64,000 nt of DNA from Gemmatimonadales bacterium (GTDB lineage: Bacteria > Gemmatimonadota > Gemmatimonadetes > Gemmatimonadales > GWC2-71-9): NCBI GenBank assembly GCA_041580775.1, contig JBFGDF010000003.1, positions 2,806 to 66,805 on the forward strand. Reading direction: 5' to 3'. Under the pieces are notes generated by a model. The model worked only from the letters and a program-made list of their open reading frames with translations. It was not told where the DNA came from and searched no databases. Each line of letters opens with the position of its first letter. Positions within the stretch are counted from its first letter, which is position 1. The translations under genes and the position numbers were made by a program. Positions 1,635 through 63,017 of the stretch are shown here, piece after piece.

Positions 1635-2636
1635 TCACGCTCCCGAGAGATCCGCCTGCTGCAGCAGCCACGCCGCCAGCTTGTCGACCGGGTCGCCAGG
1701 GGCGACCGCCGCCGCCACGACCGGCACGGCCTCACCAGCCGCAGCCGCGCTCTGGAGCGCCTTGAGCTGCTCGAGCTCCTCCTCCTGCTGCGTCGCCGAA
1801 AAGGGACCGGCGCGCCGACGCCGATCGAGCGAGGGCACCTCGGTGACCGCGAGGCGCGCGCCGATCCCGCCGCCAAGGGCGGGGTCGTGGACGAAGCGCG
1901 CAGTACCGCCCGGGAAGACCCCGACGATGCCGGGCCCATGCCACGCCGCCAGACGGCTGACGACGGCCCCGTCCGTCGTCTGCGCCACGAAGGTCCGCGG
2001 CGTGATGAGCCGCACGAGTGGCGCCGGCGAGGTCTCGCCGTGGACCAGGAGGACGATCTTGGCGCCCCCGTCCAGGAATTCGGCGAGGCCGGCAGGCCGC
2101 AAGTCGCTGCCCTCGAGCTCGATCACCACCGGCGGCGCCAGTCGCCGCTCGGCCTGACTCCACAGTCCGAACGGGAAGGCGTCGAGCCAACGATCGTGTT
2201 CGGCGGGCCGGTACCGGCCACTGCGGGCCAGATCGGCGACGCGCCCCGCCCCCATGGCCCGCCCCAGCTCGGCAAACAGGCGGCTGGCGGCCTCGTAGAG
2301 GTTCTCGCCCGGGACCAGGGTCAGCAAACAGGCGTCGTCGCCGCGCACGGCCAGCGACTCGAGGACCGTGAGCGCCCGCTGAATGACCGCGTGCGCGGCC
2401 GGTTCGGGGGCCGCTTCGAGCGTGAGGACCCTCGCCAGTCGATCGACATCGATGTGCTGCACTCCCACAGGGCCGAGGCTGGCGGCGAGCTGCGCGTGCC
2501 GGTCCTCGGTGGCCTCGCGGTGCGTTTCCAGATACACGCGGACTTCGTCCAGCGTCGCCGCGAGGGCGGACCGGTAGGCGTCCCGCGGTGTCGCCAGGGC
2601 CGCCAGGATGGCGGCGGTGCGTTCGTCAGACGGCAT
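1635..2636 (-). CDS. Hypothetical protein (333 aa) embedded in the oxidoreductase operon
   Basis: ORF 1635..2636 has high GC3 and an ATG start. It overlaps the korB1 stop by 11 nt and ends 1 nt before the RnfB-like start. I recognise no family motif. Confidence 0.65.
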   Translation of the reverse strand: MPSDERTAAILAALATPRDAYRSALAATLDEVRVYLETHREATEDRHAQLAASLGPVGVQHIDVDRLARVLTLEAAPEPAAHAVIQRALTVLESLAVRGDDACLLTLVPGENLYEAASRLFAELGRAMGAGRVADLARSGRYRPAEHDRWLDAFPFGLWSQAERRLAPPVVIELEGSDLRPAGLAEFLDGGAKIVLLVHGETSPAPLVRLITPRTFVAQTTDGAVVSRLAAWHGPGIVGVFPGGTARFVHDPALGGGIGARLAVTEVPSLDRRRRAGPFSATQQEEELEQLKALQSAAAAGEAVPVVAAAVAPGDPVDKLAAWLLQQADLSGA

Positions 2637-3582
2637 ACTTCTCGAACTCCTCGTTCAGACGATCGATGCGCTCCTGCGCGGTGCGCACGCGCTGGCGACG
2701 CAGATCCTCGTACCGCTGGCGTGACTCGTCGCGGAAGAAGATCCCGAGGCGAATGCGGTCGGTGGGTTCCGACAGATGGCGTGCCATGTCGATGTCCTTC
2801 GGGTCGTGCACGCGCCGGTTCTTGAAGATCTTCTCCAGCTCGGGTGCGTCGACGCCGTCCGGGTGCACCAACAGCTCCACCAGGTTGGGGTTGCGCACGG
2901 CCTCCTGAAACAGGTCGTCCGTGTACTGCGGGCAGCGCTGGAGGATCCGCACGAAGGAGAACCCGCGGTGCCGGAACGCCGCGGCGACGGTCGCGTAGAC
3001 GTGCGCCGGCATCCAGTCGGCCGTCTGCGCCACGAACGACGCATTGGAGACGCCGAGGGTGGCGGACAGCGGATTCAGGGGGACCAGGTGGCTACCCTTG
3101 GGCTGCGTGTTGCTGGCATACCCTTGAGGCGTCGTGGGCGACGTCTGGTTCTTGGTGAGCCCGTAGATGCCGTTGTCGAGCATCAACGCCACCATGTCCA
3201 CGTTGTAGCGCACGGCGTGAATCCAGTGCCCGGCGCCGATGGAGCAGCAGTCGCCGTCTCCCATCACTGCGAACACGTGCAAGTCCGGCCGGCGCAGCTT
3301 CACGCCTGTCGCGATGGGCAGCGCGCGGCCGTGGATGCCGTGGAACCCGTAGGTCGTCAGGTAGTGCGGGAACCGGCTCGAGCACCCGATGCCCGAAACG
3401 AACACGGTGCGCTCAGGCGGCAGCTGTTGGGCCTCGAGCAGGCGTTCGACCGCGGCGAGGATCGCGTGATCGCCGCACCCCGGGCACCACCGGGGGACCG
3501 CCCCCCCGTAGTCTTCCATCGTCCAACTGCGGTCGTCGTCATCATAGCCGCAGCTCACGAACGAACACGAGGTATCGATCAC
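2626..3582 (-). CDS. korB: 2-oxoacid:ferredoxin oxidoreductase beta subunit (TPP-binding), copy 1
   Basis: Motifs present are WCPGCGDHAIL, SGIGCSSRF, MGDGDCCSIG (TPP GDG) and IYGLTKNQ. The longest start is a GTG overlapping the korA1 stop (GTGA, 3579-3582); an internal M22 start is also possible. Confidence 0.9.
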   Translation of the reverse strand: MIDTSCSFVSCGYDDDDRSWTMEDYGGAVPRWCPGCGDHAILAAVERLLEAQQLPPERTVFVSGIGCSSRFPHYLTTYGFHGIHGRALPIATGVKLRRPDLHVFAVMGDGDCCSIGAGHWIHAVRYNVDMVALMLDNGIYGLTKNQTSPTTPQGYASNTQPKGSHLVPLNPLSATLGVSNASFVAQTADWMPAHVYATVAAAFRHRGFSFVRILQRCPQYTDDLFQEAVRNPNLVELLVHPDGVDAPELEKIFKNRRVHDPKDIDMARHLSEPTDRIRLGIFFRDESRQRYEDLRRQRVRTAQERIDRLNEEFEKYAV

Positions 3583-5489
3583 GCGTGCCCCCCGGGCATC
3601 ATGCTCTCGATGCCCTCCAGAATGCCCTTCGGACGCAGCGGCTGCCCCGGCACGCGGGTCCAGCAGTCGACGTCCACCAGTGTGTGGGCCCGAAGCAGCC
3701 AGGCCAGCTGCCCGAGCCGCCGGTTCTCCACCGTGATGTACGGATCGCCCAGCCGATCGGAGTAGTTGATCTCGACGGTGGCCACCTTGCGGAAGCGGGC
3801 GAAGATGTCCTTGAGCCCTGGCTCGAACGGTGACAGCACCCGCAGGTGCAGCGCCGAGACCCGAAGGCCCTTGGCCCGGGCGGCATCCACCGCCTCGTGG
3901 ATCGCGCCCAGGGTGGATCCCCAGCCGACGACGAGCAGATCTCCCTCGTCGTCGCCATAGACGACCGGCGGCTTGAGCGTGCTCTGCAACACGGCGAGCT
4001 TGCGGCTCCGCATGGCGCAGCCGCGCTCATGCACGTCCGGGCTGTACGCCACCTTGGAGTCCTCGTCGTGGGACAGGCCGGTGAGCGTGTGCATGCCGCC
4101 GGGCTGGCCGGGAATGAGCCGCCGGGAGAGACCGGACTCCGGATCCCAGTCGTAGGGCTTCACGCCCTCGGGCACCGGACGCAGGTCCAGCGGAGCCGCC
4201 TGCCAGCGTGGATCGAGTTGCGGGCGCGGGAAGGGCTGGACGCCGGTCGCCAAGTTGGCATCGGTGAGGACCATCACGACGCAGCGCAACAGTTCGGCGA
4301 TCCGGCGGGCCGTGATCACCATATGAAAGCACTCTTCGATCGTGGCAGGCGCCAGGATCACCTTCGGCGCGTCGCCCGGCTGGCCGTAGAGCGCGGCGAG
4401 CAGGTCCGACTGCTCGACCTTCGTGGGGAGGCCCGTGCTCGGGCCGCCGCGCTGCACGTCGAGGACGACCAGGGGGACCTCCGACATCGTCGCGAGCCCG
4501 ATGAACTCGGTCTTGAGCGCCAGACCCGGACCGGAGGTTACCGTGAAGGCCACCTTGCCGGCGTACGACGCGCCAATCGCCACCCCGGCCGCCGCGATCT
4601 CGTCTTCGGCCTGGTGGACGATCCCCCCGAAGTCCTCGAAGATGTCCCCGAGATAGTGGGACACCGACGTGGCCGGGGTGATGGGGTACATGGCACACAG
4701 GTCCATGCCGGCGGCCACGGCCCCCATCGCCAGGGCCTGGTTGCCGTTCATCACGATCATCGGCGTCGTGGGCTTCTCGATCGGGACCTCGATCCGGAAG
4801 TCGAGGTGCTGCTCCGCCCACTGGTAGCCGAGTTCCATCAGCTGGATGTTCGAGCGCGCGACCGCCTCCGCCTTCTTGCGGAAGGACTGCTGGATGGCCT
4901 CGCGCACCAACTCGACGTCGCGGTCATAGATCCACGCGAGCAGGCCGAGCACGAACATGTTCTTGCCGCGGCGCGGGTTGTCGGTCACGGTGAGGCACTG
5001 CTCCTCCATCGGCACGCCGACGATCCGGTAGCGCCGCGTCGCGAGGACCTCCATGGCCGCCGCCCACTCACGCCGGATGTCCTCGTCTTCGTGGGTCGCC
5101 CACATGTTCTCGACCAGGACGATGGCGTCGTCGTGCAGCGCCTCGAGCTCGTGACGCGCCACGAGCGCCTGTTCGTTGAACGCGACGACGAGGTTGGAGG
5201 CATCACCCCAGTTGGTGACCGGCTTGGTGCCGATACGGATGCGATTGCCGGACGCGCCCGCACCCGAGCGGGCCGGCGGCTGGATCTCGGCCGGGATGAT
5301 CTCCACGGTCCACGCGCCGTTGCCCATCTTGGCGGAGACCTGGCCGAAGATCTGCCCGCACTTCTGGGCGCCCTCGCCGGAATCGGAAACGATTTCGACG
5401 GTGTGTTCAGGAACCCGGATGACGACGGGGCCGGCGGCGTTCGTGGCGGCCTTGGCCTTCTTCGTCACCGCAGGTGGAGAGCTGGACAT
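3579..5489 (-). CDS. korA: 2-oxoacid:ferredoxin oxidoreductase alpha subunit (fused gamma/alpha), copy 1
   Basis: Within ORF 3579..5609, the start was chosen at ATG 5489 (MSSSPPAVTKK...). Motifs present are MYPITPATS, HQAEDEIAAAG and QRGGPSTGLPTKVEQSDL. Confidence 0.9.
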   Translation of the reverse strand: MSSSPPAVTKKAKAATNAAGPVVIRVPEHTVEIVSDSGEGAQKCGQIFGQVSAKMGNGAWTVEIIPAEIQPPARSGAGASGNRIRIGTKPVTNWGDASNLVVAFNEQALVARHELEALHDDAIVLVENMWATHEDEDIRREWAAAMEVLATRRYRIVGVPMEEQCLTVTDNPRRGKNMFVLGLLAWIYDRDVELVREAIQQSFRKKAEAVARSNIQLMELGYQWAEQHLDFRIEVPIEKPTTPMIVMNGNQALAMGAVAAGMDLCAMYPITPATSVSHYLGDIFEDFGGIVHQAEDEIAAAGVAIGASYAGKVAFTVTSGPGLALKTEFIGLATMSEVPLVVLDVQRGGPSTGLPTKVEQSDLLAALYGQPGDAPKVILAPATIEECFHMVITARRIAELLRCVVMVLTDANLATGVQPFPRPQLDPRWQAAPLDLRPVPEGVKPYDWDPESGLSRRLIPGQPGGMHTLTGLSHDEDSKVAYSPDVHERGCAMRSRKLAVLQSTLKPPVVYGDDEGDLLVVGWGSTLGAIHEAVDAARAKGLRVSALHLRVLSPFEPGLKDIFARFRKVATVEINYSDRLGDPYITVENRRLGQLAWLLRAHTLVDVDCWTRVPGQPLRPKGILEGIESMMPGGHA

Positions 5490-5789
5490 GTGTGGTCCTG
5501 CGCTGGAGTCCGATGTCACGTCGCGTCGCGCGGGGGTGGCGTCACGCAAATCGCGACCGGGGAGGTCGCCCTCCGCAGCGGCGCACGCTGGCGACCGCCG
5601 GCTCCCCATGCGGCGTGGACGCGACTCGCGGTCGCGGTAAAACTACCGTGAATATGGTAGAGGAAGGCCCCGAAGCGGCGTCCTAGTTTTCTATGAAGAC
5701 ACCTTTAAGACATGAAGACCCGCAAGGCGCTACGGAGCAACGGGATGACGGGAAGACGGGGGACGGGATGGCCGTCACCCCGGATGCCC

Positions 5790-6806
5790 TCACCCCCCGA
5801 TCGCCCACGTCCGGCCCTTCCGCAGCACGACGTTGAGGTCGGCCGTGGCGAGTCCCTCGGTGCGGACCTGCGCCAGCGCTTCGCGCTCATACGTGGGGGC
5901 CGGGGCGCAGTAGATCACGCCGAGCGCCTGGGGGAACTCGGGCGGGTGCATCGCGACCAGCATCTGGGCGAGGGTGTGATCGGTCTCATCGTGCACGAGG
6001 AGCTCCGCGGGCGAGACGCCATCAGCACCGACGGTCACGACCTCGAGCTTGAGGGCCCCCGGCTTGATGCGGATCCCCTTCTCCTTCGCCTTGCCGAACA
6101 CCATCGGCTTGCCGTGCTCGAGGTGCAGTTGCTGATCAGGCGCGAGGCCTTTGTCGGTGAAGCTCGCAAACGCGCCGTCATTGAACACGACGCAGTTCTG
6201 AAACACCTCGACGAACGACGTACCGCGATGCTGGTGTGCCCGCTTGAGCGTCTCGACCAGGTGCGGCAGGAGCGTATCCACCGAGCGGGCCACGAATCGC
6301 GCGCCCACACCGAGCGCGAACGCCCCTGGCGCGATGGGGTTGTCCACGGAGCCCATGGGGGTGGAGGGCGACCGGAAGCCACGGCGTGACGTGGGCGAGT
6401 ACTGACCCTTGGTGAGCCCGTAGACCTCGTTGTTGAACAGGATCACCTGGAGATCCACGTTGCGCCGCAGGACGTGGAGCATGTGGTTGCCCCCGATCGA
6501 AAGCCCGTCCCCGTCGCCCGTGATGACCCAGACGTCGAGGTCGGGATTCGCCAGCTTGACGCCGGTGGCGATGGCCGGCGCGCGCCCGTGAATGGTGTGG
6601 AAGCCATAGCTCGCGACGTAGTACGGAAAGCGGGCGGCGCAGCCGATCCCCGACACGAAGACCGTGTTCTCGCGCCGGGCGCCGAGGTCGGCGAGCGCCT
6701 TCTGGACCGCCTTGAGAATCGCGTAATCGCCGCAGCCCGGACACCAGCGGACTTCCTGGTCGGACGCGTAGTCCTTCGGGCTCGACTGCGGGAGGGTCGC
6801 CGTCAT
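5790..6806 (-). CDS. korB: 2-oxoglutarate/2-oxoacid:ferredoxin oxidoreductase beta subunit, copy 2
   Basis: Motifs present are WCPGCGDYAIL, SGIGCAARF, TGDGDGLSIG and VYGLTKGQ. The start was chosen at ATG 6806 (MTATLPQ...), 4 nt after the korA2 stop. Confidence 0.9.
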   Translation of the reverse strand: MTATLPQSSPKDYASDQEVRWCPGCGDYAILKAVQKALADLGARRENTVFVSGIGCAARFPYYVASYGFHTIHGRAPAIATGVKLANPDLDVWVITGDGDGLSIGGNHMLHVLRRNVDLQVILFNNEVYGLTKGQYSPTSRRGFRSPSTPMGSVDNPIAPGAFALGVGARFVARSVDTLLPHLVETLKRAHQHRGTSFVEVFQNCVVFNDGAFASFTDKGLAPDQQLHLEHGKPMVFGKAKEKGIRIKPGALKLEVVTVGADGVSPAELLVHDETDHTLAQMLVAMHPPEFPQALGVIYCAPAPTYEREALAQVRTEGLATADLNVVLRKGRTWAIGG

Positions 6807-6810
6807 CGTC

Positions 6811-8673
6811 TCACGCCTCCAGGCGGTCACGGACCGCCCGCTCGATGTCACTCACCTTGAACGGCTTGCCGGTCACCTGGTTGATCCCCTCGGCGGGAAG
6901 CAGATACTGGGCGCGCAGCAGGTTCACGAGCTGGCCGGTGTTCATCTCGGGCACGAGCACCCGATCGTAGCGCCGCAACAGGTCCCCCAGGTTCTCGGGA
7001 AACGGCCAGACGTACCGCACGTGGATGTGGGCCACGTCCTGGCCCTCCGCCCGAAGCAGGCGGACGGCCTGGTGGATCGGGCCGTAGGTGGAGCCCCACC
7101 CGACGACCGCGACGGCGCCATGGTCCGGCCCCAACGCCACGCTCTGGGGCGGGATGTCGCGCGCGACCGCCGCGACCTTCGCCGCCCGGGCGTTCGTCAT
7201 GGCCTGATGGTTGTCGGGGTCGTAGGAGATGTTGCCCGTCTGCGCGCTGCGTTCCAGCCCGCCAATCCGGTGCTCGAGGCCGGGCGTGCCCGGGACGGCC
7301 CACGGCCGGGCGAGCGTCACGTCATCTCGCGCAAACGGCATGAATCCGTCGGGGTCGCTGTGATACGCAACGGGGAACTCGGGGACGAGGTCCACATTCG
7401 GGATGAGCCAGGGTTCGGCGGCATTTGCTAAGAAGCCGTCCGTCAACACGATAACCGGCGTCATGTACTTGGTGGCAAGCCGGACGGCCTCGATGCCGAC
7501 CTCGAAGGAATCCGACGGAGTAGCGGCAGCAACTACTACAAGCTGCGCATCGGCATTCCGGCCGTAGATCGCCTGGTAGAGATCCGACTGCTCGGTCTTG
7601 GTCGGAAGACCTGTCGAGGGCCCGGCCCGCTGGGCGTTCACGATGATCAGCGGCAGCTCGGTCGCGATCGCGAGCCCGATGGCTTCCCCCTTGAGGGCGA
7701 TGCCCGGACCGGAACTGGACGTCACGCCCAGCGCGCCGGCGTAGCTGGCTCCGATCGCGGCACACACGGCCGCGATTTCGTCTTCGGCCTGAAACGTCAC
7801 CACGCCGTAGTCCTTGAAGCCCGCCATGGTGTGGAGCAGGGGCGAGGCCGGCGTGATGGGATACGACCCGAGCACCAGCCGCGTCAGTCCCGCCTTCTTG
7901 ATCCCCACGAGCAGGCCCCACGCCAGTGCTTCGGTGCCGCTCACGGTCCGATACGTGCCCGATTCGAGTTCGGCGGCGGCCACGGAGTACCCCGAGACGT
8001 GGGACGGCATCTCGGCCGTCTCGCCGAAGGCGTGCCCGGCATTGAGCGCCCGGAGGTTCGCGTCCCGGATGGCCTCTTCCTTGGCGAACTTCTTCTTGAC
8101 CCACTCGACCGTCGCCTTGCGCGAGCGCCCGTACATCCAGAGCATGAGTCCGAGTGCCCACATGTTGCGGCACCGGAGTGCCTCCTTCTGCGAGAGGCCG
8201 AGCCCGTCCACCGCATCCAGGGTGTGCCGGGTCACGTCGAGCTTGAGCACCTGGAACGGCGCCAGCGTGTCGTCTTCGAGCGGATTCGCGGCGTACCCGG
8301 CCTTCTGGATGTTGCGGTCGCTGAACGCGCCGGTATCCACGAGTACCGAGCCGCCCATCCGCAGATCGGACAGGCTGACCTTGAGCGCCGCCGGGTTCAT
8401 CGCCACGAGCACATCGAGCTCGTCGCCGACGGACGTGATGTCCTTGGCGCCGAAGTGGATCTGGAACGCCGACACCCCGTAGGTGGTCCCGGCGGGAGCG
8501 CGGATCTCGGCGGGGTAGTCCGGAAACGTGGCCAGGTCGCTGCCCGCCAGCGCCGTTTCCTGGGTGAACTGTAGCCCCGTGAGCTGCATGCCATCGCCCG
8601 AGTCGCCCGCGAAGCGGATGACGACGCTGTCGCGCACCTCGCGCTCGGGGCGGGTGGCGGGGGGGGAACCCAT
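6811..8673 (-). CDS. korA: 2-oxoglutarate/2-oxoacid:ferredoxin oxidoreductase alpha subunit, copy 2
   Basis: Within ORF 6811..8988, the start was chosen at ATG 8673 (MGSPPATRPE...). Motifs present are FAGDSGDGMQLTG, SYPITPASP, FQAEDEIAAV and QRAGPSTGLPTKTEQSDL. Confidence 0.9.
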   Translation of the reverse strand: MGSPPATRPEREVRDSVVIRFAGDSGDGMQLTGLQFTQETALAGSDLATFPDYPAEIRAPAGTTYGVSAFQIHFGAKDITSVGDELDVLVAMNPAALKVSLSDLRMGGSVLVDTGAFSDRNIQKAGYAANPLEDDTLAPFQVLKLDVTRHTLDAVDGLGLSQKEALRCRNMWALGLMLWMYGRSRKATVEWVKKKFAKEEAIRDANLRALNAGHAFGETAEMPSHVSGYSVAAAELESGTYRTVSGTEALAWGLLVGIKKAGLTRLVLGSYPITPASPLLHTMAGFKDYGVVTFQAEDEIAAVCAAIGASYAGALGVTSSSGPGIALKGEAIGLAIATELPLIIVNAQRAGPSTGLPTKTEQSDLYQAIYGRNADAQLVVVAAATPSDSFEVGIEAVRLATKYMTPVIVLTDGFLANAAEPWLIPNVDLVPEFPVAYHSDPDGFMPFARDDVTLARPWAVPGTPGLEHRIGGLERSAQTGNISYDPDNHQAMTNARAAKVAAVARDIPPQSVALGPDHGAVAVVGWGSTYGPIHQAVRLLRAEGQDVAHIHVRYVWPFPENLGDLLRRYDRVLVPEMNTGQLVNLLRAQYLLPAEGINQVTGKPFKVSDIERAVRDRLEA

Positions 8674-8774
8674 CTTGGGACGGCCTTTCGTGCTGGGATA
8701 CGAAATATGGGGGAGGCGGGGGCCGATGGAAGGGGACGCGGCCGAGTCGCCCATCGGAGCAGCGCGGCGCCGGC

Positions 8775-9053
8775 TCAGCCCAACGTCCGGTCCTTCCAGG
8801 CCCACCACTTGAGGAGTTCCGGCCGGGGACGCGGGGTGCGGGCGAAGTACACGGCGCACCGGAACGCGTACAGGACACACGGGTCCTGCCGGACCCCCCG
8901 CAGCTGGCTCAGACGTGCGTAGAGGCGTTCGGGATCTCGGCGTCGGAGCGCGCGCACCGAGTGCACGCCGAGGGCGTGGAGATCGCACGCCAAGCTCGGC
9001 CCGATCCCCGGAATCCGTCGCAGCTCATCACCGTCGTCGTTCCTTTCGCGCAC
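8775..9053 (-). CDS. Helix-hairpin-helix protein (Cdd1 / 'pathogenicity locus' family-like)
   Basis: The sequence LRRIPGIGPSLACDLHALGVHSVRAL is an HhH motif. The GTG start is preceded by AGGAGG. Confidence 0.6.
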   Translation of the reverse strand: MRERNDDGDELRRIPGIGPSLACDLHALGVHSVRALRRRDPERLYARLSQLRGVRQDPCVLYAFRCAVYFARTPRPRPELLKWWAWKDRTLG

Positions 9054-20132: not shown

Positions 20133-21776
20133 ATGATCCGCACACCCCTTCTCACGGCCGTGCTGGCCGCCGTGGCGGTGTGCCCCCTTGGGGCGCAGGC
20201 CCACGATCATCGACCGCAGAACGCGCCCGCCCCGGGCGCGGCGGTCCCGCTCTACGACAACCTCGGGAGCTACCACTACCCCGTCACGACGGTGGTTCCG
20301 CTTGCCCAACGGTTCTTCGACCAAGGCATCCGCCTGACGTGGGCCTTCAATCATGCGGAGGCCATCCGCGCCTTTGCCGAAGGTGAGCGGCTCGACTCGA
20401 CATGCGCGATGTGCGCGTGGGGCATCGCGCTCGCCGCCGGCCCGAACATCAACGCGCCGATGGACTCGGCGATGGGTGTGCTGGCCTACCAGGCCATCCA
20501 GCGCGCCCGCGCGGGAACGCGGCACGTGTCGCCGCGGGAAGGCGCCCTCATCACCGCGCTAGCCGAACGGTACGGCCCTGAGCCTCTCGCGAACCGCGCC
20601 GGCCGCGATTCCGCGTACGCCGCCGCCATGGCGCAGGCGGCGGGACGTTACCCCGACGACGTCGAGGCCCAGGTCCTTCACGCGGACGCCCTGATGAACC
20701 TGCGGCCGTGGGCCTACTGACTGCCGGACGGTGCGCCGGCCCCCGGCACCTCCACCCTGCTCGAGCGGCTCGAGCGCGCGCGCGCCCTGAACCCGGACCA
20801 TCCCGGTGCGTGCCACCTCTACATTCACGCCGTCGAGGCACGGGATCCCAAGCGCGCGGTGGCGTGTGCGGAGCGGCTGGCGACGCTGATGCCCGGCGCG
20901 GGGCATCTCGTGCACATGCCGGGACACATCTACATCCGCGTCGGGCGCTACGCGGACGCGATCGACGCAAACAAGCACGCCGTCCATGCGGACGAGTCCT
21001 ATCTCGAAGGACCGATGGTGAGTCGGGAGGGGCTCTATCCGCAGGGCTATTACCCGCACAACTACCACTTCATGAGTTTCGCGGCGTCTCTGGCGGGCGC
21101 GAGCCAGACCGCCATCGACGCGGCGCGACGGACCGCCGCACGCCTCGGTCCCGACGTGATCCGCCAGATTCCGTGGCTCGAGGCCGTCACGCCCATCGTG
21201 CCCTGGACACTGGTCACGTTCGGACGCTGGGACGAGGTCCTTGCCGAGCCCCTGCCACCCTCCGACCTGCGGTTCGCCACCGGGATGGCGTATTACGCCC
21301 GCGGAGTGGCGCTGGCCGCCCTCGGGCGTCGCGACGATGCGCAGACCACGCTCGACTCCGTGCGCGCAATCGCAGATCGCTTCCCGGACAATGACAACCG
21401 TACGGCCCTGCGGATCGCCGCGCACGCGCTCGCCGGTGAGATCGCGCTGCGCGGCGGCCGCCCTGCCGCGGCGGTCCGCGCGTTCCAGGCGGCGGCCGAG
21501 CTCGAAGACCGGCTCACCTACAACGAGCCGCCGACGTGGTATTACCCCATGCGCCACTCGCTCGGCAAAGCGTTGCTGGCGGCCGGTCGGCCCGTGGACG
21601 CCGAGCGGGTGTATCGGGAGGACCTGGAGCGGTTCCCCGAGAACGGGTGGTCGCTGTTCGGGCTCGTGCGGGCGCTCGAAGCCCAAGGACGCACGGCGGA
21701 GGCGCAACGTGTCGAGCGCCGCAGGGCGGCGGCGTGGAGCAGCGCCGATGTCGAGCTGACCGCTTCGCGGTTCTGA
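20133..21776 (+). pseudogene. TPR-like secreted protein interrupted by one in-frame TGA (20718-20720)
   Basis: Track ORFs 20133..20720 and 20859..21776 are in the same frame. Coding-like GC3 continues straight through the TGA (...NLRPWAY[TGA]LPDGAPAPGTSTLLERLERARALNPDHPGACHLYIHAVEA...). A GGGAGG SD sequence and a signal peptide sit at 20133. Confidence 0.7.
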
Positions 21777-26164: not shown

Positions 26165-26333
26165 GGGACACCTCGGTGGCTCGGGAGGATGCGCTGGCCG
26201 TCAGCCGGCGGGAACCCGGATCGTGCATCCAAGGAAGAGCCGGCGGTCTGAAGCGGAGATGAAGTGGGCCTGAAGACGTCTGGCGGGCGTGCCACGCGGG
26301 ACGTACCTCTCCGCAGAGACCGACGGTGAGGCA

Positions 26334-26660
26334 ATGATGAAGAAGCTACTCGGCTATCTCTGGTCGGTGGTCTTCGTCGCGTGGATCGTGATCGCGACGG
26401 TGCGCTGGCTCGAACATCCGGACGGCGTCCTGGGTGCCTTGACCCACTTGTGGCAGCACCTGCACGCGGACTGGATGCTGCTGCTGATCGTCTCGGACCT
26501 GCTGGTGTTCACGCTCTTGGCGATCGCCTGGCTCATCATCGACCTGCACCGGCGCGGCGCGTCCCCCGGGCGGATCGCGGCCTGGATCGCTCCGCTGTTC
26601 GTGCTTGGCAACGTCGTGCTGGTGGTGTACCTGCTCCGGCGTCCCACGCGAGCGTCATAG
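26334..26660 (+). CDS. Small integral membrane protein
   Basis: This is the internal ATG of ORF 26289..26660. It has three hydrophobic helices (LGYLWSVVFVAWIVIATV; WMLLLIVSDLLVFTLLAIAWLII; AAWIAPLFVLGNVVLVVYLL). Confidence 0.55.
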   Translation: MMKKLLGYLWSVVFVAWIVIATVRWLEHPDGVLGALTHLWQHLHADWMLLLIVSDLLVFTLLAIAWLIIDLHRRGASPGRIAAWIAPLFVLGNVVLVVYLLRRPTRAS

Positions 26661-26864: not shown

Positions 26865-27524
26865 ATGCCGCTCCGCATCGCCATCGTCACCCTTGCGGTG
26901 ACCGCGCTGTCCGCGCCGCTCGACGCGCAGCTCGCGACCCCGACGCACTGGCGCTGGATCACGGATGCCCCCGCCCAGCTCGTGACCGGCCAGGACGTGC
27001 CCGACTCGGCCTGGCGCTTCGTGACCATGGCACCGGGGTGGCATGTCACGACGGGACCAGGGGCCATCCTGTACGATCCGACGATCCGCGGGCAGGGGCG
27101 CTTCGGCATCGCGGCCGAGGTCTTCCTGTTCCCGGACTCCAAGAACGGCGAGTTCGGGCTCTTCTTCGGCGGCACCGAACTCGACGGCAGCCAGCGTCGC
27201 TACAGTGCGTTCGTGCTGCGGCGCGACGGCTTGGCCGCGGTGTACGTGCAGGATGGCGCGACCCGGCGATCCGTCGTTCCCTGGACCGCGTCCGACGCGG
27301 TCCAGCCACACCCCGGAACGGGCACGCTGAAGCACGTGCTCGGCATCGACGTAGAGCCCCGCGAGGTGACGTTCCGTGTGAACGGCGAGGCGGTCGCCAG
27401 CGTCCCGCGTGGGAGTGTGCCGGTCGAGGGCGCGATCGGGTTCCGGGCCGGTGCCGACGTCAACCTGCACTGGTCGACCCTCGATGTGACGTTCCGGCTC
27501 GCCGAGCCGCGTCCCCAGCGGTAA
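26865..27524 (+). CDS. Secreted hypothetical protein (possible concanavalin/DUF1080-like beta-sandwich)
   Basis: A signal peptide and high GC3 are present. The domain call is tentative. Confidence 0.5.
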   Translation: MPLRIAIVTLAVTALSAPLDAQLATPTHWRWITDAPAQLVTGQDVPDSAWRFVTMAPGWHVTTGPGAILYDPTIRGQGRFGIAAEVFLFPDSKNGEFGLFFGGTELDGSQRRYSAFVLRRDGLAAVYVQDGATRRSVVPWTASDAVQPHPGTGTLKHVLGIDVEPREVTFRVNGEAVASVPRGSVPVEGAIGFRAGADVNLHWSTLDVTFRLAEPRPQR

Positions 27525-27618
27525 GCGCGGTGTCGACGCGACTCCCGCCGTCCCACGGTGACGTCATGCGGATGTTCGTGCCGCCTCGCGCCACCCGAAT
27601 CCGTTCCCCGGAGGCCGG

Positions 27619-28083
27619 ATGACCGATCCCTTCTACGTCGCACGTGCCACGATCCACAAGATCGCCGGTACACACCGCCGGGCCGATCTGGAAGTCGGGC
27701 CGCCGATCGACTTCGGCGTGCATGGCACGATCAAGGCGCACTACAAGCTGGACGGCGAGAAGAACCTGCCGCTGCCGGTGGATTACATCGTGGCGGCCAC
27801 CGGCGGTTGAATGCTGGGAACCCTCAATGGCGCACTGGAGGTGCGCGGGATCAGCCTGCCCCCGGACGCGATCCGTGCCGACGTCACCGGCATCAACGAG
27901 GTGCGGGACCGCCTACCGGTCCTCACTGGCGTCGCGATCCACTACACGTTGCGGATCCCGGCGGGGTCGCGGGAAACGGTGGACCGCGCGCTGGCGACGC
28001 ACCAGGCGAAGTGCCCCACGGCCGCGTCGCTGCGCGCGGCCATCGAGATCACGTGGACGGCGGACGTCGAGGAGGCGGGATGA
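27619..28083 (+). CDS. OsmC/YhfA-family protein with in-frame TGA at the conserved Cys (candidate selenoprotein, or pseudogene)
   Basis: Track ORFs 27619..27810 and 27811..28083 share one frame and are separated only by TGA 27808-27810. Joined, they read ...VDYIVAATGG[TGA]MLGTLNGAL...HQAKCPTAASL..., matching the two-Cys OsmC/YhfA pattern (AAGGC...; ...KYCSV...). A GGAGG SD sequence precedes 27619. The stop overlaps the next gene's start (ATGA). Confidence 0.7.
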
Positions 28084-29906
28084 CGGACGGACGGAAGGAT
28101 GGAACGTCGAGGTGGGTGGCGTGTGTCGGCGCGCTGGTGCTGCTGGTCGCCGCACCGCTTCCGGCGCAGCAGCCGACCCTCGCCGCGGCACGCCGCTTCC
28201 TCGATCAGGCCGAGGCGCAGCTCGTGGAGCGGAGCGTACATCTCTCGCGCACCGAGTGGGTCGCGGCGACCTACATCACGCAAGACACCGAGTTGCTGTC
28301 CGCGACCGCCCAGGCCGAGTACGGGCAGCTCGTGCAGCGCTTGGCGACCGAGGCGGCGGGCTACGACGCGGTCCCCATGCCCGCTGACCTCCGGCGGCGC
28401 TTCCTCCTGCTCAAGCTCTCTCTCGCGGCTCCCCCGCCCGCGGATTCGGGGCTGGGCGTGGAGATGGCCCGGCTGCAGACCGGACTCGAAGCCGACTACG
28501 GGCGCGGAACTTACTGTCGGCCCGGTGCGGGTGGCACGCAGTGCCTCACGCTGAACGACCTGACGCGCATTCTGGCGGAGAGCCGCGATCCCGCGGAGTT
28601 GCTCGCGGTGTGGCGCGGCTGGCACGCGATTGCGCCGCCGATGCGGGACCGGTATGCCCGGTTTGTCGCCTTGGCGAACCAGGGAGCACAGACGCTCGGG
28701 TTCGGGGACGCGGGGGCCATGTGGCGCGCGGCATACGACATGCCGGCCGACGCGTTCGCGGCGGAGATCGAGCGGCTCTGGGAGCAGGTGCGTCCACTCT
28801 ACGTGGCGCTCCACGCGTACGTGCGGCATCGCTTGAGCATCTTCTACGGCCCAGCCATCGTGTCGCCCGACGGCGCGGTGCCCGCGCACCTGCTCGGCAA
28901 CATGTGGGCGCAGGATTGGGCGAACATCTTCCCGCTCGTGGCGCCGAGCGGCGTCGGCCCGGGGTACGATCTCACGGCGATCCTGCGCGAGCAGGCGCCC
29001 GACGCCCGGCAGTTGGTGCGCTACGGCGAGAACTTCTTCCTGTCCCTCGGGTTCGACTCGCTTCCCACGACCTTCTGGGAGCGCTCGCAGTTCACCAGAC
29101 CACGGGACCGGGACGTCGTGTGCCACGCGAGCGCGTGGAACGTGGACAACCGCGACGATCTCCGGATCAAGATGTGCATCGAGCCCACAGCCGAGGACTT
29201 CGTCACGATTCACCATGAACTCGGCCACAACTTCTACCAGCGGGCCTACAAGGACCAGCCGCTCCTCTACCAGACGGGCGCGCACGATGGCTTCCACGAG
29301 GCCATCGGCGATGCCATCGCACTGGCGATCACCCCCGACTATCTGGTGAAGGTGGGCCTGCTCGACCGCGCGCCCGCAGCGTCGGCCGACACCGTGCTGT
29401 TGCTGCGTCAGGCGCTGGACCGCGTGGCCTTCCTGCCGTTCGGCCTGCTGATCGACCAGTGGCGCTGGCGGGTGTTCAGTGGGGACATCGCGCCCCGCGA
29501 CTACAACCGGGTCTGGTGGGACCTGCGTATGCGATATCAGGGAGTGGCCCCGCCTGCTCCCCGCGGATCGGACGCGTTCGATCCCGGCGCCAAGTATCAC
29601 GTTCCGGCGAACGTCCCCTATACGCGGTATTTCCTCGCCGGGATCCTGCAATTCCAGTTCTACCGCGCGCTCTGTCAGGCGGCGGGCTACACCGGTCCGC
29701 TGCATCGCTGTTCGTTCTTTGGCAGCACGACGGCCGGCGAGAAGCTCGGGCGCATGCTGGCCCTGGGCGCGAGTCGGCCGTGGCCGGAGGCGCTGCACGC
29801 GCTCACGGGCCAGCGCGACATGGACGCGGGCGCGCTGCTGGAGTACTTCGCGCCGCTCAAGGTCTGGCTGGATCGCCAGAACGCGGGGGTCCCGATCGGT
29901 TGGTGA
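28080..29906 (+). CDS. M2-family peptidyl-dipeptidase (angiotensin-converting-enzyme-like), secreted
   Basis: This is the internal ATG of ORF 27558..29906 with a GGAGG SD sequence. It has a signal peptide and the motif HHELGHNFY...HEAIGDAI. Confidence 0.85.
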   Translation: MTDGRKDGTSRWVACVGALVLLVAAPLPAQQPTLAAARRFLDQAEAQLVERSVHLSRTEWVAATYITQDTELLSATAQAEYGQLVQRLATEAAGYDAVPMPADLRRRFLLLKLSLAAPPPADSGLGVEMARLQTGLEADYGRGTYCRPGAGGTQCLTLNDLTRILAESRDPAELLAVWRGWHAIAPPMRDRYARFVALANQGAQTLGFGDAGAMWRAAYDMPADAFAAEIERLWEQVRPLYVALHAYVRHRLSIFYGPAIVSPDGAVPAHLLGNMWAQDWANIFPLVAPSGVGPGYDLTAILREQAPDARQLVRYGENFFLSLGFDSLPTTFWERSQFTRPRDRDVVCHASAWNVDNRDDLRIKMCIEPTAEDFVTIHHELGHNFYQRAYKDQPLLYQTGAHDGFHEAIGDAIALAITPDYLVKVGLLDRAPAASADTVLLLRQALDRVAFLPFGLLIDQWRWRVFSGDIAPRDYNRVWWDLRMRYQGVAPPAPRGSDAFDPGAKYHVPANVPYTRYFLAGILQFQFYRALCQAAGYTGPLHRCSFFGSTTAGEKLGRMLALGASRPWPEALHALTGQRDMDAGALLEYFAPLKVWLDRQNAGVPIGW

Positions 29907-30794: not shown

Positions 30795-31040
30795 TTATTC
30801 CCCGGCGATCGTGTCGGCGGGCTGCAGGCACTCCTGCTCACACGTGATCGACGCGGCGCCGAACCGCCCGCACCACGTCACGGCCGGGCGCCCGCTCACG
30901 GGATCCACCGCAAGCCGCACGCGCTTGATCCCTCCCGTATGCGGACAGGCGACTCGCGTGGTCACGGCCGGCAGCGCCTGCGGCGCGAGGTCGGGCGTGA
31001 CCTGGGCGTACAGCCAGGCTTCGGTCATCATGGCGCACAT
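30795..31040 (-). CDS. Small Cys-rich hypothetical protein (81 aa)
   Basis: A GGAGG SD sequence lies 6 nt before ATG 31040. GC3 is high and the stop is TAA. Five Cys residues occur in ACPHTGG...TWCGRFGAASITCEQEC. Confidence 0.45.
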   Translation of the reverse strand: MCAMMTEAWLYAQVTPDLAPQALPAVTTRVACPHTGGIKRVRLAVDPVSGRPAVTWCGRFGAASITCEQECLQPADTIAGE

Positions 31041-31162
31041 GTCTACCTCCGGCGTGCTGTCACCATCGCCGGTCGCGGCTGAAGGCTCCATGAATTCCCG
31101 GTGAATCCGCTCCCTCTGGCGAGCCGGTGGCTCACGGCTGAAGTTCCCTGCGGAGCTCGGCC

Positions 31163-62638: not shown

Positions 62639-63017
62639 GGAGGAGACCGGCGGGGTGTCACGGTCGCAGCCGGTTCCCACGGGAATCGGTTGAGGAAAGT
62701 CCGAGCTCCACAGGGTTGGCTGCCAGGTAACGCCTGGGCGCCGCAAGGCGACGGACAGGGCCACAGAAAACAGACCGCCCGCACAGTGCGGGTAAGGGTG
62801 AAACGGTGGGGTAAGAGCCCACCGCACGCCTGGTAACAGCGCGTGGCACGGTAACCCCCAGCCGGAGCAAGGCCAAATAGGCGGCGAGGTCCGACCCGGA
62901 CCGATCGAGCCGCGGGTAGGCCGCTAGAGGTGCCGGGTGACCGGCATCCCAGAGAGATGACCGTTGCGCCCCTCGGGGCGAACAGAACTCGGCTTACGAC
63001 CCCGCCGGTCGCCCTCC
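62639..63017 (+). ncRNA. rnpB: RNase P RNA, bacterial type A
   Basis: Universally conserved P4 strands are present: GAGGAAAGTCCGAGCTCCACAGGG (from 62692) and ACAGAACTCGGCTTA (62982-62996). GGGTAAGGGTGAAACGGTGGGGTAAGAGCCCACCG is also present. The ends GGAGGAGACCGGCGGGG and CCCCGCCGGTCGCCCTCC pair as P1. Boundaries are good to a few nt. Confidence 0.92.

Follow-up and report, generated by a model that had tools for sequence, protein, structure and literature searches.

Bacterial proteins of the OsmC fold in which selenocysteine (Sec, U) takes the place of a redox-active cysteine (Cys) are known from marine metagenomes. Three Sec-containing sequences from the Sargasso Sea were described in 2005 by Zhang, Fomenko and Gladyshev as OsmC-like selenoproteins of COG1765 with the motif UxxT (PMC1088965), the 2008 Global Ocean Sampling study counted five Sec-containing against 161 Cys-containing OsmC-like sequences (PMC2398784), and a 2026 review lists the OsmC-like selenoprotein under Pfam family PF02566, again with the motif UxxT (PMC13188914). 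Here we describe a predicted selenoprotein gene of this superfamily at positions 27619–28083 (+) of a 64,000-nucleotide stretch of DNA from a Gemmatimonadales bacterium (contig JBFGDF010000003.1), referred to throughout as the window, which has a G+C content of 70%. An initial annotation of the window had nominated the gene because of a UGA at a conserved Cys codon and a hairpin shortly after it, and had mentioned OsmC-like entries in lists of metagenomic selenoproteomes, which the three publications bear out.

Three standard computational indications of Sec insertion coincide at this locus, namely a conserved UGA, Sec/Cys pairs, and a bacterial Sec insertion sequence (SECIS) element. On these grounds we infer that 27619–28083 encodes a 154-residue selenoprotein of the OsmC/Ohr superfamily, with its UGA decoded via the downstream SECIS element, and we assign this interpretation a probability of about 0.9.

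A single reading frame interrupted by UGA

Direct translation of 27619–28083 yields one frame of 154 codons and a terminal TGA (28081–28083), with a single internal stop at codon 64, the TGA at 27808–27810, where the surrounding residues are ...VDYIVAATGG*MLGTLNGAL.... A Shine-Dalgarno sequence, GGAGG, can be read at 27610–27614 (+), four nucleotides (nt) before the ATG at 27619. The predicted N-terminus, MTDPFYVARA, agrees with those of full-length relatives, and a start codon is located 62–63 codons 5′ of the TGA in 139 of 151 TGA-form relatives. When Cys is placed at the TGA, the joined protein matches the Pfam OsmC model (PF02566) over residues 48–146 (E = 1.8e-12; 48 bits, compared with a cut-off of 27.5 bits). 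If the UGA is decoded as Sec, the predicted tryptic peptide across position 64 would be NLPLPVDYIVAATGG-U-MLGTLNGALEVR, and the full-length product would have a mass of about 16.5 kDa.

The terminal stop overlaps the ATG (28080) of the next gene in the sequence ATGA at 28080–28083. This downstream gene (28080–29906, +) encodes an ACE-like M2 peptidase (Peptidase_M2, PF01401, E = 1.1e-215). The continuous frame broken only by the TGA, the good Shine-Dalgarno sequence and the ATGA coupling to the peptidase start had all been pointed out in the initial annotation and are all seen here. Its further proposal, that the distal half of the gene is translated, fits the finding, described below, that purifying selection acts on it as strongly as on the proximal half.

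Conservation of the UGA and Sec/Cys pairs

A protein search gave 1,622 relatives, and we inspected the site in the best 120. Full-length proteins of about 153 amino acids (aa) with Cys at the site (...AATGGCMLGTL...) account for 27 of these, and 92 are fragments of 89–97 aa that begin exactly at Met65, showing that gene callers split these genes at the same stop. A scan of one genome per species gave 195 relatives, and a stop is present at the site in all of the best 80 loci that were inspected; these are mostly from Gemmatimonadota, including Longimicrobiales and 'Candidatus Palauibacter', together with about a dozen from Acidobacteriota and one from Eisenbacteria. Even when a metagenome scan was seeded solely with Cys forms, the majority of the sequences returned were TGA forms.

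Of 161 scorable related loci from Gemmatimonadota, Acidobacteriota and other phyla, 157 have TGA at this codon and four have TGC. The codon directly following TGA is ATG in 150 of the 157 loci and a Leu codon in seven (CTG in L071:209 and L073:3458, CTA in L148:3190 and L161:220, and three others). The related loci encode proteins 61–94% identical to that of the window, which shows them to be independent lineages and not copies of one error, and the TGA form is also present in complete genomes, for example NZ_OZ253465.1, NZ_OZ250143.1, OY970342.1, CP070670.1, OZ220691.1 and OZ242312.1; further complete or near-complete carriers are OZ241352.1, OZ243123.1, OZ244217.1 and BEIJ01000001.1. There are ten Cys-form loci, with either TGC or TGT at the site, and a rough neighbour-joining tree divides the Cys forms among some four clades. 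The Cys/Sec pairs for which the initial annotation had proposed a homologue alignment are thus found at exactly this codon.

The N-terminal half of the gene is open in all 151 TGA-form genes. Amino-acid identities of the two halves are 0.60 and 0.64, and the ratios of nonsynonymous to synonymous differences (pN/pS) are 0.49 and 0.46, with pS saturated; both halves are coding and equally constrained. In 107 of 155 relatives this gene itself ends in TGA, so TGA normally terminates translation here, and we rejected a reassigned genetic code as an explanation for the internal TGA because the same codon ends this same gene.

A hairpin downstream of the UGA

A predicted bacterial SECIS hairpin occupies 27830–27846 (+), starting 19 nt after the TGA. 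It consists of a 5′ arm, GCGCAC (27830–27835), a loop, UGGAG (27836–27840), and a 3′ arm, GUGCGC (27841–27846), with the loop 25 nt from the TGA; a seventh pair, U27836–G27840, is possible and would leave a GGA loop. The hairpin alone has a folding energy (dG) of −9.7 kcal/mol. The consensus bacterial SECIS model specifies a loop of 3–9 nt, a stem of 4–16 bp, a distance of 16–37 nt between UGA and loop, and a minimum free energy of −7.5 kcal/mol or lower, and also looks for a G in the first two loop positions in the pattern N1-G-[G/U]-N-N2 (PMC13188914). All four criteria of the model are in agreement with the hairpin, which has a 5-nt loop with G at position 2, a stem of 6–7 bp, a spacing of 25 nt and a dG of −9.7 kcal/mol. 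The element is located where the initial annotation had put it, and the spacing falls, as had been suggested, within the range described for bacterial SECIS elements.

The hairpin is strongly conserved in Sec forms. All six stem pairs are kept in 129 of 132 distinct Sec-form sequences (97.7%), compared with 7.6% expected when synonymous codons are resampled using the family's own usage with the peptide held constant; if a G within the first two loop positions is also required, the values are 95.5% observed and 3.8% expected. Codons that favour pairing are used far more at these positions than family-wide, with Ala GCA at 72% vs 5.6%, Val GTG at 83% vs 46%, and Leu CTG at 95% vs 43%.

Double-sided changes occur at three of the base pairs. 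In 10 sequences G–C is replaced by C–G, with a Gly to Ala (GCC) change that is always accompanied by Arg CGC to CGG; in 21 sequences A–U is replaced by G–C, with Ala GCA to GCG matched by Val GUG to Ala GCG; and in three sequences C–G is replaced by U–A or G–U. Paired cells make up 98.4% of the total, and there are 34 compensatory cells compared with 6.6 in shuffled alignments, with none of 500 shuffles reaching the observed value. As a control, sliding the 3′ partners by 1–3 columns reduces pairing to 21–70%. RNAalifold, with no structure supplied, reports exactly this helix and nothing else. Although the peptide is identical or almost identical in the ten Cys-form loci, only three of the ten keep the six pairs and none uses GCA (129/132 vs 3/10; Fisher p = 7e-8). 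Because it is kept in Sec forms and mostly lost in Cys forms, the hairpin goes with the UGA and does not simply arise from the GALEVR peptide. Conservation of the hairpin in relatives, which the initial annotation had proposed to look for, is accompanied by covariation and by a fit to the bacterial SECIS model.

The Cys forms that retain the full hairpin are L081, L085 and L165, and those that do not are L082, L083, L163, L164 and L166–L168; the former may be recent Sec/Cys switches. We also note that in six loci (L014, L020, L043, L065, L070 and L144; alignment columns 22–49) a different 7-bp stem is possible, judged by eye, with its 3′ arm further downstream, reading GGUGCAC...GUGCACC or, in L020, GGCGCGC...GUGCGCC. 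This alternative stem is imperfect in L014 (5/7 pairs) and L144 (6/7 pairs). Within the subclade the Ala codon (GCA/GCG) and a His/Arg codon downstream of it appear to vary in concert, and three further loci (L134, L143 and L147) are placed with it by their peptide. From these alignments, the SECIS element seems to have been remodelled in this subclade.

Catalytic positions and fold

In alignments to solved OsmC and Ohr structures, position 64, the predicted Sec, falls on the first conserved Cys, in the segments AAHAGC of Thermus thermophilus OsmC (1ukk), AAHAAC of Escherichia coli OsmC (1nye) and AGYSAC of Pseudomonas aeruginosa Ohr (1n2f), and the initial annotation's placement of the TGA on the first conserved Cys of the fold is therefore upheld. 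The second conserved Cys of these structures (GCPVS, VCPYS) aligns with Cys132, the TGC codon at 28012–28014 (+), in the motif HQAKCPTA; this context had correctly been described as intact, and Cys132 is invariant across the family. By these sequence alignments, the catalytic Cys pair of OsmC/Ohr structures corresponds to U64 and C132. Following published work on Ohr and OsmC, we take the first and second conserved Cys to be the peroxidatic and resolving residues, such that the predicted Sec would be at the peroxidatic position and Cys132 is a putative resolving Cys. The fold comparison was made with an AlphaFold model of a Cys-form relative (P0009; 59% identical, pLDDT 81) standing in for the window protein, and among Protein Data Bank (PDB) structures this model matched only OsmC, Ohr and OsmC-like proteins.

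The gene could be decoded, and its product might act, as follows. As the ribosome nears the UGA at 27808–27810, the mRNA hairpin 19 nt downstream (27830–27846) would function as a SECIS element of the bacterial type, with UGGAG as the G-rich apical loop, and would recruit SelB-GTP bearing Sec-tRNA(Sec), so that Sec would be inserted in place of termination. In the folded protein Sec64 would occupy the peroxidatic position, its selenolate attacking a hydroperoxide (ROOH to ROH), and the resulting selenenic acid would be resolved by Cys132 to give an intramolecular selenenylsulfide. A dithiol reductant would then regenerate the enzyme, for which the Ohr/OsmC precedent is a lipoylated protein or thioredoxin. 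We infer SelB binding, selenium incorporation, peroxidase activity and the identity of the reductant by analogy, from what is established about Sec decoding in bacteria and about the chemistry of Ohr and OsmC.

Sec decoding and alternative explanations

Several observations weigh against Sec insertion. No tRNA-Sec was found in the 64-kb window by ARAGORN or Rfam, or by ARAGORN in about 1.6 Mb flanking 168 related loci; Pfam annotation identified no sel genes among about 50 open reading frames (ORFs) from the window; and when the flanks of the related loci were scanned with SelA, SelB and SelD motifs, only IF-2 was matched. We note that because sel genes need not be linked to the genes that depend on them, their absence from the window and flanks constitutes no test rather than a negative result. 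A scan for in-frame TGA with coding signal on both sides revealed no other selenoprotein gene in the window or flanks, and in the literature searched we found no published statement of Sec decoding in Gemmatimonadota; Acidobacteria are documented users of selenoproteins (PMC1794560, Table 2). The hairpin matches no SECIS family in Rfam, and a permissive E-value search around it gave only noise. The folding energy of the whole region departs only moderately from that of synonymous resamples (mean z = −1.4, with p ≤ 0.05 in 32% of sequences), a weak test that we replaced with the stem-specific tests described above.

ARAGORN reported tRNAs of 96–98 nt in three related loci (L023:126–221, L026:6347–6444 and L047:19049–19144; Leu-aag, Ile-gat and Arg-tct), none with a UCA anticodon. 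These long tRNA calls are unconfirmed by Rfam at the gathering score and are probably false positives.

One alternative, raised in the initial annotation, is that the TGA arose at a TGC or TGT codon by nonsense mutation, in a decaying pseudogene, or through a sequencing or assembly error. A single window cannot separate this from Sec, and the same window holds such a case: a TPR-like gene at 20133–21776 (+) reads through an in-frame TGA at 20718–20720 (...LMNLRPWAY*LPDGAPAPGT...), but 84 of 86 scorable homologues have Trp at this position (PWNYW). We therefore rejected it as a Sec codon, and judged from the homologues it is an ordinary TGG-to-TGA disruption, whether it stems from nonsense mutation, from a pseudogene or from an error in sequencing. 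For the OsmC-type gene, this explanation is effectively excluded, because 157 independent loci, which span several phyla and many assemblies, share the TGA, both halves are open and under purifying selection, and a downstream hairpin co-varies; the chance that it accounts for the TGA is very small.

Two other explanations accept that the TGA is genuine. The gene could be truly split, with translation stopping at the UGA and restarting at the adjacent AUG (UGAAUG), giving polypeptides of 63 aa and 90 aa that assemble without the first catalytic residue. The frequency of ATG after the TGA (150/157) is consistent with this, as is the calling of the 89–97 aa ORF as a gene by annotation pipelines; however, Met65 shows the same conservation in Cys forms that are not split (GGCMLGTL), indicating a structural residue rather than a start codon gained later, and the CTA or CTG codons in seven loci argue against restart as a general mechanism. 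A split gene would also have lost its peroxidatic nucleophile while its resolving Cys stayed invariant, and it leaves unexplained a co-varying hairpin that lies at SECIS spacing and has decayed in Cys forms, such that we consider it very improbable. Slightly less so, although still improbable, is read-through of the UGA by a near-cognate tRNA carrying Trp, Cys or Arg, perhaps with stimulation from the hairpin. In favour of this reading, no Sec machinery was found in the window or the flanks, and downstream hairpins can stimulate read-through in some systems. However, the site is that of a redox-active Cys, with Cys in relatives, which is the classic Sec/Cys signature, and the hairpin conforms to constraints specific to bacterial SECIS elements (loop G, spacing and stem length). 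Moreover, read-through of this kind would give mostly truncated protein, an outcome unlikely to be conserved over approximately 150 lineages when a single TGA-to-TGC change would repair it. We therefore favour Sec insertion at U64.

Genomic context

The nearest relative of the window is a Gemmatimonadota metagenome-assembled genome (JAOTWJ010000003.1), with 94% identity for the OsmC-type protein and 88% for the M2 peptidase. We considered the M2 peptidase as a functional partner of the OsmC-type protein, but the same arrangement is present only in the closest relative (L001), and in L128 the gene is on the other side; the peptidase gene is therefore a neighbour rather than a conserved partner. 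No conserved operon partner emerges among the related loci.

A 98-aa ORF without a family match is located at 30795–31091 (−) of the window, and its homologues in L012, L124 and L128 directly follow the OsmC-like gene in convergent orientation. The two are separated by the M2 peptidase gene in the window and in L001, which suggests that the peptidase gene was inserted in this lineage. Just upstream of the OsmC-type gene are two ORFs with high third-position GC (26289–26660 and 26865–27524, +) in the same frame, with a TAG and about 200 nt between them. No Pfam or NCBIfam match was obtained for either, and a homologue in L001 exists for the second (219 aa) only.

Other arrangements are seen in particular groups of relatives. 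In several Longimicrobiales-type Sec loci (L014, L018, L020, L038, L043, L046, L060 and others) the gene is about 4 kb upstream of infB, and the genes called downstream of the Cys form P0002 are rimP, nusA and infB. A COX15/CtaA gene adjoins the OsmC-type gene in four Cys-form loci of one clade (L081, L082, L165 and L166), and ctaB, cytochrome c oxidase and GHL15 genes are also visible in L081 and L082.

Elsewhere in the window, a class A RNase P RNA (RF00010, 292 bits) at 62647–63012 (+) is the sole Rfam match at the gathering score. Genes for the alpha and beta subunits of 2-oxoacid:ferredoxin oxidoreductase (POR_N, POR, TPP_enzyme_C) lie in two tandem pairs at 2626–8988 (−), and an ORF with an Fe-S/ferredoxin domain lies at 770–1939.

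Discussion

The odds are about even that this gene represents an uncatalogued, Sec-dominant OsmC subfamily that extends over no fewer than about 80 species-level genomes of Gemmatimonadota (among them Longimicrobiales and 'Candidatus Palauibacter', which is associated with sponges), that also occurs in Acidobacteriota and some further phyla, and that is mis-annotated everywhere public as a fragment of 89–97 aa. If so, Sec decoding would be widespread in these abundant soil and marine lineages, a trait for which we found no published record. Many of these lineages are probably aerobic, and Sec in them would be at odds with the statement of the 2026 review that selenoproteins are seldom retained by bacteria with an aerobic lifestyle (PMC13188914).

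Recognition of the subfamily would also have practical consequences. In all the sources inspected, gene callers have split the gene. The C-terminal fragments that make up 92 of the best 120 database clusters carry the names "OsmC family protein" or "hypothetical protein", so hundreds of annotations would be corrected, and the curated selenoprotein model of NCBI misses the subfamily. The gene would be a handy marker of Sec decoding in Gemmatimonadota and Acidobacteriota, and a natural Sec/Cys pair in the OsmC/Ohr fold would allow the contribution of selenium to a hydroperoxide reductase to be tested. The predicted SECIS element is of interest in itself, being located inside a highly conserved peptide, GALEVR, in which Val to Ala and Gly to Ala replacements are coupled with synonymous changes such that the RNA helix is kept.

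Comparison with family models places the protein outside the curated groups. It scores 25.7 bits (E = 8.8e-6) with NCBIfam NF041052, 'OsmC-related (seleno)protein', below the 95-bit cut-off, and 16.9 bits with TIGR03562 (OsmC proper), below the cut-off of 85.8, and no Ohr-named model is among its family-model matches. No close relative has a full-length Sec-form annotation, and the best matches above about 63% identity are all fragments. In view of the scores below both cut-offs, the motif discussed below, the majority of Sec forms and the lack of full-length Sec annotations, the comparison indicates that this is a distinct subfamily of an already known type of selenoprotein, one that lies outside the curated family but does not amount to a new type of system.

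The marine OsmC-like selenoproteins, which we treat together with NF041052 as a model that may represent the same family, are the closest described counterpart; published OsmC-like selenoproteins include AACY01145085 and MCS5647933.1. The marine proteins share PF02566, predicted substitution of Sec for a redox Cys, a bacterial SECIS element just after the UGA, and the existence of Cys homologues. Compared by published motif, the marine family has UxxT, whereas essentially all members of the group described here have U64-M-L-G-T68 (UxxxT). The marine family is rare and mostly Cys-containing, whereas here Sec is dominant, by 157 to 4 among loci and by 92 to 27 among the best 120 protein clusters. 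The hosts also differ, in that the genes described here are from Gemmatimonadota and Acidobacteriota of soil, sediment and sponges rather than from the marine metagenome.

The OsmC and Ohr reductases of known structure (1ukk; 1nye and 1qwi; 1n2f) have the same fold, with the first catalytic position on the long helix (U64 here) and the second in a CP motif (C132), and the mechanism expected by analogy is also the same, with peroxidatic attack followed by formation of an intramolecular bond to the resolving Cys. They differ in that Sec is predicted to replace the peroxidatic Cys, and the similarity is remote, with E values of about 1e-3 to PDB chains. Sec-containing peroxiredoxins and glutathione peroxidases resemble the predicted protein in using a Sec nucleophile to reduce peroxides and in having Sec/Cys pairs across homologues (PMC1088965, Table 3), but they have a thioredoxin fold in place of the alpha/beta fold of OsmC, and their resolving and reducing partners are different.

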